Shown: positions 29,418 to 51,085, counted from the first letter of the stretch. The stretch is 53,228 nt of DNA from a virus (IMGVR_UViG_3300048029_000117:1-53228), one strand, 5' to 3'. Made by a program: numbers and translations. The notes: generated by a model not told the origin, from the sequence alone.

Positions 29418-30455
29418 ATGACACATAAAGTAGACGATACACTAAGAGACGATGGTAGAAGAGAAATATCTCAAGTTACTGGACGAGAGGTTGATAAAGT
29501 TGTTCCAGAACATTTTAAAACAGACTATCCAAAGTTAGTCTCGTTTTTAGAACAATACTATCATTTTGAAGATAGTGATGGTTCACCAAGTAGATTAGTA
29601 AATGATTTATTTTACACAAGAGATATTAATCAGGTAGATGAATCTTTATTAACTTATATTGAAGACGAGTTATTATTAGGACAATCTTACTTTGAAGGAT
29701 TTGCAGATAAAAGAACTGCCGCAAAATTTTCTAATAACTTGTATCGTGCAAAAGGTACAAAGTTTTCAATCGAACAATTTTTTCGTATGTTCTTTGAAGT
29801 TGATATAGACTTAGAATATACAAAAGAACAAGTTTTTAGAGTTGGTGTAGCAGGTCATGATATTGGTGCAGAATCAAGAAAATTTATCACAAATGCTGAA
29901 TTGTTTCAACAGTTCGCATTACGTATTACAAGTGAATTACCATTTAAAAGATGGCAAAGACCATACAAATTATTTGTTCACCCTGCAGGAATGTTTGTCG
30001 GGTCTGCGGTAAGATTAGAAGGAGTCGTACAGAATGACATACTTGCACCAATTAGTTTTGTTGACTCAGACTTAGGACAGATTGATGTGGTAGGTGCAAC
30101 TGCATTTGGTTTTGATGAAGTAACACAATTTTTACCTGAGGTAACTGGTATCGCAAGAGATAGTGGAGATAGTGACGGTATATTTAAAAGAGTTATTATT
30201 GATGATGGTTTACTTACATCTATTGGTAGCACAAGTATTGTTGATATTCAAAAACAATATGAAACACTACGTGCCGCAGAATTAAGAACATCACCAACAT
30301 TTGATGCAGATTCTACTGGTCTTGCGAATAGTGTAAACATAGACTTTAGTAATGCATTTACTTCTGAAACTATGGACCAAGATAGATTTGAGTTTTTTAG
30401 TGCAGATAGTGATGTATATTATTCAAAATTAAGTAATCCTGCACACATAAGTTAG
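29418..30455 (+). CDS. Baseplate wedge subunit gp7-like
   Basis: P.HF...YP.LV.FL..YY, Y..KGT..SI..FFR..F and HPAG; follows gp6. Confidence 0.7.
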   Translation: MTHKVDDTLRDDGRREISQVTGREVDKVVPEHFKTDYPKLVSFLEQYYHFEDSDGSPSRLVNDLFYTRDINQVDESLLTYIEDELLLGQSYFEGFADKRTAAKFSNNLYRAKGTKFSIEQFFRMFFEVDIDLEYTKEQVFRVGVAGHDIGAESRKFITNAELFQQFALRITSELPFKRWQRPYKLFVHPAGMFVGSAVRLEGVVQNDILAPISFVDSDLGQIDVVGATAFGFDEVTQFLPEVTGIARDSGDSDGIFKRVIIDDGLLTSIGSTSIVDIQKQYETLRAAELRTSPTFDADSTGLANSVNIDFSNAFTSETMDQDRFEFFSADSDVYYSKLSNPAHIS

Positions 30456-30465
30456 GAATAATTTG

Positions 30466-48500: not shown

Positions 48501-51085
48501 ATAGTGACGTTAGTGGTTTAGTTCACGAAGTAGGTATTGAAGAACATCAAAGAGTTTATAACAATAGTGGTGCAACAATCACAAAAGGTAAACCAGTATA
48601 CTTCTCTGGTAACTACACGGGCGGTGCAGTAGATGTACCAACAGTAGCACTTGCAGATGCAACTGATACTGCAAAATACAATGCACAAGGTTTAACTGCA
48701 GTAGCAATACCAAATAATTCGTATGGATATATTCAGACTTCTGGTCAGTTATCAGGACTAGATACTTCTGGTTTAACTGCAGGTCAAAAAGTCTTTGTTG
48801 GTCTAGGTTCTGGTTTATTATCAAATTCTACACCACTATATCCAAACTATCCAATATGTTTAGGTTGGTGTGTAAGTTCGAATGCTTCAACGGGTGTAAT
48901 TTTACTTAACAGACAAGCACACACAATTGACTCATTAAGAGTTGTGACTTCGGGTCACATAGGAAGTAATTTACAGATTGACGGAAACTTAACAGTTCTA
49001 GGGTCAACAACCTCTGTATCGTCTGCAGACTTAACTGCTGGTACACCAATGTTCAGATTGAATGAAGGTAATGCAATCGGTGAGGCAGGAACAACTTTTT
49101 CGGGTACAGGATTAGATGATGCCTTCTATTCAGGATTCTTTACTGGTACTGCGAATCAAAACTATTATGTTAGAATTGATGGTGTTGGTACAGGTGCAGG
49201 TGGCGTAGATACATTTGAAGTAGCATTTGCCGCAGATAGTACATTCTCTTCACCAGTATTAACTAAGCAACCAATTACTGGTTCTGCTCAGATGATTCAT
49301 TCAACTGATAACATTTCAATCAACTTTGCATCAACTACGGGTCACGATTCGGGCGCAAGATGGGCAGGTACTGCTGGACCAATTAATGTCGATACTGGTT
49401 TCTTCTCAAACAGAAACACTGGTTCTTCAGGTGTAGGATTTACTTATGTTGGTATTTACTATGATGTTTCAGATGATAAATGGAAACTAATAGATGAATA
49501 CGATTCAAACCCAAGTGGTAGTATTAATGAAGCAGATGCTTCTTACAGTTTAGGTACATTAAAACTTGATACTCTAGAAGGTAATGTTACAGGTAATGTA
49601 ACTGGTAATGTATCAGGAACTGCCGCTACTGTTACAGGTGCCGCACAGTCTAATATTACAAGTGTTGGTACTCTTACTGGGTTAACAGTTGGTGGTGATT
49701 TAACTCTTGACTCTGCGGGTGCAGTAGTTTACGATAAGTCTGAAAAAGCATTAACATTCGGTGATAAGCATTTTATAAAATTTGGAACTGGTGGTGATGC
49801 AAACATAAGACATGACGGAAACAATACTAAATTTACACATACGGGTACGGGTGGATTATATATTGGTGCAGATACTTTTGCACTTCAAAATGGAACACAC
49901 GATGAAAACTATATTGTCATGGGAGACAATAGTTCGGTAGAATTATATGAAGATAATGTTAAAAGGTTAGAAACAACCACAACTGGTGTCTCTGTCACTG
50001 GACTTATGGCAAGTACGACTGCGACTGCAGACTCGGCCACAATAGGTAATCTTGCTTCTAGTTCAATAAACACAAATGCATTACAAGTAGATGATATCAC
50101 GATAGATGGCACAGAAATAGATTTATCTAGTGGTGACTTAACATTAGATGTTGCAGGAGATATTATCCTTGATGCTGATGGTGGAGATATAAGATTTAAA
50201 GATGGTGGTACAGAAATTGGTGTTATAGAAAATTCTAGTTCTGATTTACAAATAAAATCTGCTGTACAAGATAAGGACATAATATTTAGAGGTAATGATG
50301 GTGGTTCTGGGATTAATGCACTTACTCTTGATATGTCTGCAGGTGGTGCGGCAATATTCAGCGACCAAATAACTCTTGGTGGTAATTTAATCCATGCAGG
50401 AAACCTTACTGTAGATGTAGGTGGTGATATAACACTTGATGCAGATGGTGGAGATATTAAATTAAGCAATGGTGGTACTCAGTTTGCAAACTTTGGCGAC
50501 GCCACCGGTGCTGTACATATAGATGCTGTAATTTCAGATGATGATATTAAATTTAGAGGTGTTAGTGATGGCACTACATTTACTGCATTGACATTAGATA
50601 TGTCTGATAGAGGTAATGCAACCTTTGGTGCTGGTGCTACCTTTAATAGAAGAACTGAAATATCAACTGATTCTGATTATCAACTTAGAATTGACAATGG
50701 TAGTAATATTTGGTATAATCGAGTTCAAGGTGATGGTACTTTTGCTTTACACTTAAATGGTACTGGAAATATTCTCCATGCAACTTCAACTGGTATAGGT
50801 GTCACGGGTAATGCAGATATATCTGGTACATTATCAGTTGGTAATTTAAATGTAGACTCTGCAGACATAATTAAGATTGCAAGAGATAATTTATCTACTG
50901 GTCAAGCAGGATTAACTTACGATAGTTCTGGTGGTCAGTTTGGACTAAATGCAAATCATGTAATGGCACTAATACAAACAGTTGACTCAAATGGTAGTGG
51001 TCTAAATGCCGCAACGTTAGATGGCCAAGAAGGTACACACTACAGAATTAACGTATACAATAACTCAGGAACTCTATTGAATTAA
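45575..51085 (+). CDS. Long tail fibre-like protein with DSATIT repeats
   Basis: 1836 aa, Thr/Ser/Asp/Gly rich; GDLTVQGTTTTVNT, LDADGGDI and DSATIT modules. Confidence 0.8.
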   Translation: MAVNKITLKKVVVGTPIKTVTAGSFGINNLGGVTTTGQASGTILAFNLSSGNYEVAQFTGDSNMFVTYDSSGSPDSFKINFTNDSISGNLVPRLDSAQDLGSATKKWKDLFLSGGTINIGSLKVKDENGNFVVRDSDGGTVLTNPKFITVNGDTDILAYDSNTSTFTFNDSDIARTDENETFHKNVIIAGDLTVQGTTTTVNTEEINLADNIIRINSNATGVPTETGGIAIERGDSDNKLFVWDETNDRWTIVSETFYTLGLIRGGQLVGDSGTITSLASTTHTANTITANNTTSVNVTSTNLITGANANIDSATIGNLSITNMLASSGDSATFTNIANTQFTGSQATIDSATITNLNADSSDIRQLSTEFINFDSAFGDSATITNLANTQLTASQITVDSATINTLNVDSSDVRQISTEFINFDSAFGDSATITNIATTQLTVANANIDSAHVTNLSAANFSMSSGDSATITNIANTQLTGSQATLDSATITKLNVDSADIDHFSTENINFDSATGDSATITNIASTNVNVDQLFTDSATITNIANSVLTAKAITNTSQVGDSATITNIANSVLTAKAITGTSANIDSATIGNLATTQITLSQVTADSATINTINADSSDIRQFSTEFINADSAFIDSATIGGIALGNNDLVTTGKLYYANVFGSEGDLPDANSHHGMFAHVHGTGKGYFAHAGAWHQLLDKSSANDSATITNLASTQLTVDNATFDSSAHNTIHASAVTIDSATIINLANTQFTSSQITSDSATINTLNADSSDIRQFSTEFINFDSAFGDSATITNIANSVLTAKVITGDSATVTNIASSQLTIDNASFDSAAANVLHAGDLTADSATLKNVAVTTQLTGKDATFDSAATNKLHSGTITSDSATVTNIASTSINTDNLFVDSATVTNLANTQLTASQATIDSADIGNLRTTGVLQADSVNATQLELLTGVTNVPAHKEGRLFYDDSNKTIGFYSDVSGLVHEVGIEEHQRVYNNSGATITKGKPVYFSGNYTGGAVDVPTVALADATDTAKYNAQGLTAVAIPNNSYGYIQTSGQLSGLDTSGLTAGQKVFVGLGSGLLSNSTPLYPNYPICLGWCVSSNASTGVILLNRQAHTIDSLRVVTSGHIGSNLQIDGNLTVLGSTTSVSSADLTAGTPMFRLNEGNAIGEAGTTFSGTGLDDAFYSGFFTGTANQNYYVRIDGVGTGAGGVDTFEVAFAADSTFSSPVLTKQPITGSAQMIHSTDNISINFASTTGHDSGARWAGTAGPINVDTGFFSNRNTGSSGVGFTYVGIYYDVSDDKWKLIDEYDSNPSGSINEADASYSLGTLKLDTLEGNVTGNVTGNVSGTAATVTGAAQSNITSVGTLTGLTVGGDLTLDSAGAVVYDKSEKALTFGDKHFIKFGTGGDANIRHDGNNTKFTHTGTGGLYIGADTFALQNGTHDENYIVMGDNSSVELYEDNVKRLETTTTGVSVTGLMASTTATADSATIGNLASSSINTNALQVDDITIDGTEIDLSSGDLTLDVAGDIILDADGGDIRFKDGGTEIGVIENSSSDLQIKSAVQDKDIIFRGNDGGSGINALTLDMSAGGAAIFSDQITLGGNLIHAGNLTVDVGGDITLDADGGDIKLSNGGTQFANFGDATGAVHIDAVISDDDIKFRGVSDGTTFTALTLDMSDRGNATFGAGATFNRRTEISTDSDYQLRIDNGSNIWYNRVQGDGTFALHLNGTGNILHATSTGIGVTGNADISGTLSVGNLNVDSADIIKIARDNLSTGQAGLTYDSSGGQFGLNANHVMALIQTVDSNGSGLNAATLDGQEGTHYRINVYNNSGTLLN
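46490..48390 (+). repeat. Coding repeat array (DSATITN.A.TQ.T, 5/10/15-aa period)
   Basis: Repeated blocks such as LNADSSDIRQFSTEFINFDSAFGDSATITNIAN; interrupted once at about 47500-47690. Confidence 0.85.

Follow-up and report, generated by a model that had tools for sequence, protein, structure and literature searches.

The dipeptide Asp-Ser (DS) recurs in the late proteins encoded by IMGVR_UViG_3300048029_000117, a virus record judged 26% complete whose whole stretch of 53,228 bases was analyzed here (the window), and above all in an 1836-residue tail fiber. The window is a fragment of an uncultured marine T4-like myovirus. We found that its DS richness is real, specific and clade-wide. 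At a probability of about 50%, we read DS as a structural element of lineage-specific fiber repeats and loops in one uncultured marine T4-like clade; what was directly observed in the long fiber is that DS recurs periodically, that a small Ala accompanies it at the center of the unit and that its Ser is strongly conserved. An initial annotation of the window had taken DS for the acceptor sequon of a virion O-glycosylation system (a glycan shield) run by phage glycosyltransferases or by a host enzyme, and this proposal is weighed below together with other explanations.

Enrichment of Asp-Ser in the fibers and outer wedge proteins

DS counts were compared with expected numbers for each protein, and p values were taken from 5000 sequence shuffles (genes are named by their first position; Table 1). 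On recount, the DS counts of the initial annotation were all exact. The long fiber holds 59 DS against 16.0 expected (p=2e-4), and the proteins 38434 and 39862 hold 13 (3.5 expected, p=2e-4) and 10 (4.2 expected, p=0.006), respectively. Enrichment was also seen in the short product of 41557 (4 versus 0.8, p=0.003), the gp8-like protein 31512 (8 versus 3.6, p=0.019) and the gp7-like protein 29418 (6 versus 2.9, p=0.048); protein 45192 showed 3 DS versus 1.1 (p=0.08), and the 3 DS of protein 30495 (1.3 expected, p=0.14) were not significant. VrlC was not enriched, with 9 DS against 9.7-9.8 expected, and because its p value was 0.65, we regard its DS as chance and outside the phenomenon. The absence of DS from gp32 was borne out (0 versus 1.6 expected). 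The claim that DS recurs in unrelated late proteins thus stands in that non-homologous proteins are enriched, but 38434 and 39862 share a module and VrlC is at expectation.

Pooling gave 38 DS versus 6.8 expected for the fiber arrays, 21 versus 9.1 for the rest of the fiber and 47 versus 17.3 for seven other wedge and fiber proteins. DS was the most over-represented dipeptide in all three outer sets, in which 115, 202 and 298 dipeptides could be tested; none of SD, DT, ES, NS, DG and NG was enriched in them, and SD was at expectation in every set. In the long fiber, DT was even depleted, to 7 versus 20.9 expected overall and 0 versus 8.8 in the arrays. No excess of DS was seen in the proteins of the inner tail, baseplate and neck (15 versus 24.2), in the early genes (13 versus 16.6) or in the four non-fiber genes of the cluster (3 versus 4.3). 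The suggested comparison of DS with composition and with SD therefore came out as enrichment of the outer proteins, also outside the arrays, and of neither the inner tail nor the early genes. With the array removed, fiber residues 1-300 still contained 10 DS against 2.1 expected (p=2e-4), and residues 961-1836 contained 11 against 7.1 (p=0.085).

Nine codon pairs encode the DS of the fiber, as its choice of Ser codons in general would lead one to expect. Internal DNA matches reach just 76-81% over at most 97 bases. DS is selected at the protein level, as had been proposed from its mixed codons.

Five-residue arrays of the long fiber

The long fiber belongs to a family whose members come only from uncultured marine viruses. 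Both of its arrays follow the pentad profile [D/T/S][S/N/Q][A/L/I][T/N/A][I/V/x]. Between residues 300 and 960, the DS-DS spacing is a multiple of 5 in 33 of 37 cases, which was matched by 0 of 10,000 random placements; the spacings are 20 (the commonest, 12 times), 15, 10, 5 and 25. Ala follows DS in 32 of the 38 array units, and the TN, TQ and SQ units have Leu or Ile at this position.

These sites are kept over long distances. D69-S70, D170-S171, D271-S272 and D312-S313 are invariant among 18 fibers, down to 26% identity. Of the 540 non-gap homologue cells with the Asp retained, 474 (88%) also have the Ser, compared with 42% for other Ser columns, and Thr stands in place of the DS Ser in 3.9% of cells versus 12.8% for other Ser columns. 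The observed/expected ratio (O/E) of DS was 1.5-4.8 in 120 of 120 metagenomic fiber homologues, and DT was below expectation in nearly all of them.

Searching the fiber sequence against the PDB returned a sole, weak match, chain 5dra_A of the repeat protein '3beta1' (E=0.07). The Pfam pentapeptide family gave no match, with the arrays searched at E up to 10 and the whole fiber at E up to 0.01, and Pfam at lax thresholds gave nothing relevant for the arrays or the fiber N terminus. In the protein atlas, the arrays drew scores of at most 0.90 (bactofilin, haemagglutinin repeat, chorion), which are leads and no more.

A His-rich block (HHGMFAHVHGTGKGYFAHAGAWH; about 47507-47690, fiber residues 645-705) splits the two arrays. 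Phages of Synechococcus, Prochlorococcus and Microcystis have tail-fiber and baseplate proteins with 38-67% identity to this block, which might be a common module for binding metal or for trimerization.

Asp-Ser sites in the other fiber and wedge proteins

The proteins 38434 and 39862 are related through a common N-terminal module, LTTT.K.lvgAINEL followed by DSD[IL]G, present in several copies. In orthologues of this module, DA, EL or ET alternate with DS at the same columns, and Ser is therefore dispensable there. A profile of the module found nothing relevant among solved structures.

The gene of the 124-residue protein always lies directly upstream of the fiber. Of its three DS, the one in VDSDG persists in 90% or more of 54 aligned sequences, that of Phage C48C1 among them, and the remaining two vary. 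The Gly-rich loops pointed out earlier, RDSGDSDG and GDSDSGGG, do exist in the gp7-like and gp8-like proteins. Five of the eight DS of the gp8-like protein fall in segments missing from the C48C1 orthologue, and one DS-bearing insertion of 22 residues was found in 0 of 5 compared orthologues.

Asp-Ser richness and glycosyltransferase genes among relatives

Across 79 related loci, the pooled DS O/E was 2.51 for the fiber (72 open reading frames, ORFs), 2.98 for the gp10-like protein (10 ORFs) and 2.30 for the 39862-like protein (22 ORFs), and 51 orthologues of the 124-residue protein had 152 DS versus 55.1 expected (O/E 2.76). Low values were obtained for the 43747 family (0.40), 44453 (0.61), 43323 (0.81) and gp13 (0.56). 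Two complete relatives, G006 and G048 (161 and 162 ORFs), showed the same distribution, the top DS-enriched ORFs being mostly fibers and cluster proteins: five of the six most enriched ORFs of G006 are labeled cluster or wedge, and the top five of G048 comprise four fiber-cluster ORFs and one adjoining gp14. In G006 and G048, the capsid protein (4 versus 1.7 and 3 versus 1.7), the sheath (4 versus 4.5 and 6 versus 3.7) and the portal were not significantly enriched, and a whole-particle shield is therefore not indicated. These values are at or near expectation; in the window as in both relatives, the enrichment is limited to the outer proteins of fiber and wedge.

Beside gp14 of G048, a protein of 397 residues (5826-7016) has 12 DS versus 4.2 expected and resembles gp14 in part. 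It could belong to the neck or the whiskers, as a protein rich in DS.

One of the glycosyltransferase genes named in the initial annotation, 43747, does not follow DS. C48C1 lacks DS enrichment, yet at the corresponding place it carries an orthologue of 43747 (53% identity) and one of 44453 (42%). In the opposite direction, four fragments (L078, L079, L081 and L084) have a fiber DS O/E of about 3 and lack 43747 in the 5.5-10 kb upstream and in the rest of the record, and G048 (100% complete) has a fiber with 33 DS versus 10.1 expected and no homologue of 43747 or 44453. Uncoupled in both directions, 43747 is not tied to DS, and we rejected it as the DS enzyme. The predicted co-occurrence of glycosyltransferases and DS thus fails for 43747 and holds for GT25 at clade level only. 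The window has GT25 genes, and so do the relatives G006, G007, G010 and G003, the last with three copies just upstream of its DS-rich fiber. A set of 50 related records yielded GT25 in 10, among them every one of the 7 with a completeness of 41% or more; the other 40 are 10-35% fragments.

A proposed structural role for the Asp-Ser pair

In the structural reading, D-S-A opens a five-residue unit of the long fiber, and units with T-N-L, T-Q-L and S-Q-I alternate with it; the array is regular and taken to be all-beta. Its shape is probably that of a beta-solenoid or of a trimeric beta-helical shaft, along which the Asp-Ser pairs would align as a ladder. In the two gp10-like fibers, which have a repeat of another type, DS is placed in the turn that follows the AINEL helix. 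The pair may form a tight turn capped by side chains, or else a packing contact, perhaps with the help of a bound cation; Thr, Asn and Glu would be unable to do so. Amplification of such DS modules would give the high DS count, and the glycosyltransferases would act elsewhere, for example on the host envelope or on DNA.

Several observations support this reading: the five-residue spacing, the Ala that follows DS, the four invariant DS sites, the 88% retention of Ser and the absence of DT from the arrays; the VDSDG turn of the 124-residue protein, kept even in C48C1, where DS is not enriched; the exchange of DS for DA, EL or ET in the AINEL module; the all-beta, though unreliable, model of the array; the view in the pelagimyophage survey (PMC7029224) that glycosyltransferases of this gene cluster modify host lipopolysaccharide; and the uncoupling of 43747 from DS richness both ways.

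Several observations weigh against it. DS ranks first also outside the arrays and in non-homologous proteins. An ordinary Asx/ST turn would accept Asn and Thr, yet no enrichment of NS, ES or DT is seen. The DS-rich clade also has GT25 genes, which overall occur in all 10 of 10 related records with a completeness of 41% or more. The gp8-like protein of G006 has 8 DS versus 3.5 expected, of which just 2 positions are common with the window, and the gp8-like orthologues of four isolates have 3-5 DS, at expectation; judged from these alignments, a density that is kept while positions shift looks more like a sequon than like a fixed structural site. Our conservation comparisons therefore separate the fiber, with fixed sites, from the gp8-like protein, with a constant density of moving sites. 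DS richness is also no general fiber property, because T4 gp34, gp37, gp12 and gp10 are not enriched (DS O/E 0.5-1.4), the structural proteins of C48C1 are not DS-specific (its 1753-residue fiber has 20 DS and 20 SD, with 13.6 expected), and none of the fibers of HTVC008M, Melnitz and Syn1 reached p<0.01 for DS. Finally, an AlphaFold2 monomer of residues 296-645, computed with 17 aligned sequences, was all-beta but unreliable, with a mean predicted local distance difference test (pLDDT) score of 40.5, so that the fold was not obtained and Ser exposure could not be mapped.

Among the isolates HTVC008M, Melnitz and Syn1, the only outliers were the Melnitz major capsid protein (L107 47894-49177; 7 DS versus 1.6, p=0.001), in a phage without GT25, and Syn1 VrlC (26 DS versus 16).

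Other explanations

DS could also be a Ser-specific acceptor site, used by a cytoplasmic glycosyltransferase that the phage encodes or by a different enzyme that modifies Ser; only the fibers and outer wedge would be decorated. We consider this unlikely, though a real possibility. The best candidate enzymes would be the GT25-GT25-GT8 trio at 909-2990 rather than 43747. Such an acceptor would account for a top-ranked dipeptide that is directional, with SD not enriched, and residue-specific, for its confinement, in the window as well as in G006 and G048, to fibers, outer wedge proteins and the host-recognition cluster, and for the gp8-like protein, where density outlasts position and most sites lie in inserted loops. 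The window has six glycosyltransferase-like genes, the trio is conserved and syntenic in the window, G006 and G048, and the presence of GT25 in every sufficiently complete relative contrasts with its absence from 5 of 5 complete isolate genomes (C48C1, HTVC008M, Melnitz, Syn1 and T4), none of which shows DS enrichment. Cytoplasmic Ser heptosylation of beta-helical autotransporters is one precedent. Virion glycosylation by mycobacteriophages is another (Freeman et al. 2023, as cited in the available part of PMC12582341).

Other results disfavor the acceptor. The GT25 co-occurrence sets one clade against outgroups and therefore counts as about one event; the fiber sites are positionally fixed within a strict repeat, and Thr is avoided. 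The 124-residue protein is annotated as an assembly factor and not as a surface protein, yet its family is DS-rich. GT25 and GT8 are classically lipopolysaccharide (LPS) enzymes, and the accessible text of PMC7029224 reads them so. The specific version, in which the clade puts sugars on the DS Ser of the fibers and outer baseplate through the GT25-GT25-GT8 set, is doubtful, slightly more so than Ser modification in general.

The Asp-Ser ladder might also be a surface that binds seawater divalent cations or host surface polysaccharide, DS being selected for ligand contact. A carboxylate and a small hydroxyl would then be required, consistent with the avoidance of Asn and Thr, respectively; DS lies in the most distal, receptor-facing proteins and in Asp-, Ser- and Gly-rich loops, and the commonest spacing of 20 residues would stack the sites. 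This contact is purely inferred, no known cation- or carbohydrate-binding family having been matched, and we hold it to be improbable.

Much less probable again is an enrichment that merely follows from composition or recent DNA duplication. The arrays are repeats, so their 38 sites are not independent, and loops rich in Asp, Ser and Gly yield DS at least as often as SD. Against this stand SD at expectation throughout, the nine codon pairs, the low identity and short length of the internal DNA matches, and enrichment in every fiber homologue as well as outside the arrays. Such a by-product is refuted for the fiber and possible only for the weakly enriched gp7-like and 45192 proteins.

T4-like and other tailed phages make, fold and assemble their virion parts in the cytoplasm. 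Modification of the virion by a host enzyme of the Bacteroidota type, the other half of the initial proposal, is very unlikely, indeed excluded for practical purposes: DSA, at 32 of 38 array sites, does fit the D-(S/T)-(A/I/L/V/M/T) motif confirmed in print (available parts of PMC8550257 and PMC12871550), but that system, in the portion of PMC12871550 at hand, acts on non-cytoplasmic proteins in the periplasm and takes Ser and Thr with a slight Ser preference, whereas DT is depleted here, only 13 of 47 DS-X outside the main fiber fit the sequon (the third residue being mostly D, G, S or N), and the nearest isolates infect SAR11, OM43 and cyanobacteria.

Gene content of the window and its glycosyltransferases

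The window carries a T4-like gene set: gp32, tail tube, baseplate hub, gp5, gp6, wedge protein and gp8, and further VrlC/DUF4815, a protein ending in Gp10_C, fibers and the neck genes gp13, gp14 and gp15. Homologues of gp6, gp8, gp10_C, VrlC, gp13, gp14 and gp15 follow the T4-like (Kyanoviridae-type) order. Among 50,697 phage records there was no DNA near-identical to the window. The nearest isolates by gp6 are Phage C48C1 (37.7% identity), the Methylophilales phages Melnitz, the Pelagibacter phages HTVC008M and Mosig, and cyanomyoviruses; these isolates (32-38% identity in gp6) infect SAR11, OM43/Methylophilales and cyanobacteria. Protein matches to isolated phages span only short shared blocks of the fibers, and the isolates searched therefore include no cultured relative with this fiber.

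Table 1. Features of the window discussed in the text
Position	Strand	Feature	Basis or remark
271-969		S-adenosylmethionine (SAM) methyltransferase	Pfam; precedes GT25-GT25-GT8 trio
909-1694	+	GT25	Pfam
1607-2350	+	GT25	Pfam
2295-2990	+	GT8/Nucleotid_trans	Pfam
2977-3399		Staphylococcal-type nuclease	Pfam
9584-11116	+	TET-associated glycosyltransferase, PF20691, 510 aa	E 2e-42; phrog 'beta-glucosyl-HMC-alpha-glucosyltransferase'
11113-12171	+	GT1-like protein	Pfam
29418-30455	+	Baseplate wedge protein, PF23786	'gp7' of the initial annotation
30495-31499	+	Protein with gp9/10-like N terminus	
31512-32978	+	gp8-like wedge protein	
32983-38226	+	VrlC/DUF4815 protein	
38434-39846	+	gp10-like fiber/wedge protein	C-terminal Gp10_C domain
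39862-41547	+	Second fiber protein	N-terminal AINEL-DSD module
41557-41874	+	105-aa ORF	4 DS
41895-43277	+	460-aa protein, (D/N)F(T/V)G(D/N)F repeats (about 7 residues)	0 DS; heads GT8-like cassette
43747-44481	+	GT8-like glycosyltransferase, GT-A fold	Fold and DxD
44453-45121	+	222-aa conserved partner of 43747	
45192-45566	+	124-aa protein	phrog_1084 / L-shaped tail fiber assembly
45575-51085	+	Long fiber, 1836 aa	phrog_9729 tail fiber, E 4e-10
46508-47509	+	First pentad array, fiber residues 312-645	DSA units every 5-25 residues
47696-48454	+	Second pentad array, fiber residues 708-960	After His-rich block shared with cyanophage fibers

Glycosyltransferases had been assigned earlier to 966-4028 and 43747. 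The two GT25 genes and the GT8 gene are recovered, as is 43747 by its fold; the remainder of the first region consists of a nuclease and of 3396-4028, which has no Pfam family. The two GT25 ORFs overlap by 88 bases and the second is listed from GTG, and its true start may therefore lie further downstream. Collagen-like targets for GT25 are lacking, in that no frame of the window has four or more G-x-y triplets in a row. The pair at 9584-12171 more likely acts on DNA than on protein, and it hints at sugar-modified hydroxymethyl bases in the phage DNA.

By fold, 43747 is a GT8-like GT-A glycosyltransferase. Its predicted model has a pLDDT of 88.3 and matches LgtC (1g9r) in Foldseek with probability 1.00 and E 2.6e-8, followed by the UGGT catalytic domains, glycogenin and GlyE; the template modeling (TM) scores are 0.47-0.58 overall. 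D84-A85-D86, the DxD motif for metal and nucleotide-sugar binding, is invariant in 25 sequences. Pfam gave no GT8 match above cut-off and only Glycos_transf_2 below it (E=0.067), and a profile search against the PDB found nothing relevant. For its partner 44453, there was no Pfam or PDB match, nor any consistent match among 23 family members at lax Pfam thresholds. The protein atlas places 44453 in its own unnamed viral clusters, with 2-oxoglutarate (2OG) oxygenase and Asp/Asn hydroxylase below 0.9 as leads only.

The cassette 41895-43323-43747-44453 stays together upstream of the 124-residue gene and the fiber in most loci, and p147, the GT8-like gene and p222 accompany the 41895-type protein in nearly all loci that have it. 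Relatives of 41895 in other loci (e.g., L006 31012-41055) are longer and slightly DS-enriched (410 versus 278, 68 ORFs), and C48C1 has at the same position a protein of 3347 residues with GNYTGNY-type repeats. The ORF 41557-41874 has a counterpart in 0 of 79 related loci, even where its flanking genes are 70-90% identical, and it may be an ORFan or no gene.

GT25 domains also occur in larger proteins. In Synechococcus phage S-8S56 (L109, 171526-174568), a GT25-like domain opens a 621-residue protein that adjoins two 2OG-Fe(II) oxygenases and a tail fiber; in the relatives G046 and G049, GT25 lies within open frames of 646 and 645 residues; and the N-terminal part of phrog_61 ('2OG-Fe(II) oxygenase') matches the GT25 proteins of the window. 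Such GT25-oxygenase fusions beside fibers may be protein-modifying enzymes.

Implications

If DS is structural only, the long fiber would represent a new and very regular fiber repeat, built from a five-residue unit with an Asp-Ser ladder. This repeat would be found in widespread uncultured marine myoviruses, would make a good target for structure determination and could help to recognize such fibers in metagenomes. If the Ser is modified, the 'LPS-type' glycosyltransferases of marine T4-like phages, now read as modifiers of the host surface, would gain a new role. Glycosylation of the fibers might influence host range, the resistance of the fibers to proteases and their aggregation in seawater; a regular sugar ladder would then run along a beta-solenoid-like shaft, and the clade would supply the first example of a receptor-binding organelle that phage-encoded enzymes O-glycosylate at a sequon.

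Comparison with known systems

Mycobacteriophage glycans reportedly sit on capsid and tail-tube proteins. The candidate targets here are the fibers, and the capsid and sheath of the relatives are not DS-enriched. The two systems are alike in having phage glycosyltransferase genes in a genome with possible virion targets; the mycobacteriophage glycans have been shown experimentally (Freeman et al. 2023, cited in the available part of PMC12582341), whereas virion glycans are only a possibility here.

The beta-helical autotransporter adhesins AIDA-I and TibA are O-heptosylated on regular Ser positions in the cytoplasm. They differ from the fibers in being bacterial adhesins served by another enzyme family, and no such heptosyltransferase was found in the window.

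The O-glycosylation of Bacteroidota resembles the present case in its Asp before Ser and, in the fiber arrays, in the Ala after Ser. It differs, according to the accessible sections of PMC12871550 and PMC8550257, in being a periplasmic system for exported proteins that accepts Thr, whereas here cytoplasmic virion parts are concerned and Thr is avoided.

In the host recognition cluster of pelagimyophages and cyanomyophages, tail fibers are mixed with GT8-type glycosyltransferases, which the authors read as modifying host LPS (Zaragoza-Solas et al. 2020, PMC7029224, available text). The window has the same succession of VrlC (at 32983), a variable block of fibers and a GT8-type gene (38434-51085) and neck genes (gp13/gp14 at 51101). 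Its cluster is short (about 13 kb), its fiber family is missing from all isolates searched, and no DS bias is mentioned in the available text of PMC7029224.

The arrangement of the arrays recalls pentapeptide-repeat proteins (A(D/N)LXX), which form a right-handed quadrilateral beta-helix. The literature on pentapeptide repeats and glycosylated tail fibers, at the level of titles and abstract openings, offered no DS-rich or glycosylated T4-like fiber. The arrays differ from this family in giving no Pfam match to it and in having Asp where it has Ala, Ser or Thr. They resemble it in the weak 5dra_A match and in a period of five with a central aliphatic residue flanked by a small and a polar one, and the commonest DS spacing of 20 residues corresponds to four such units.

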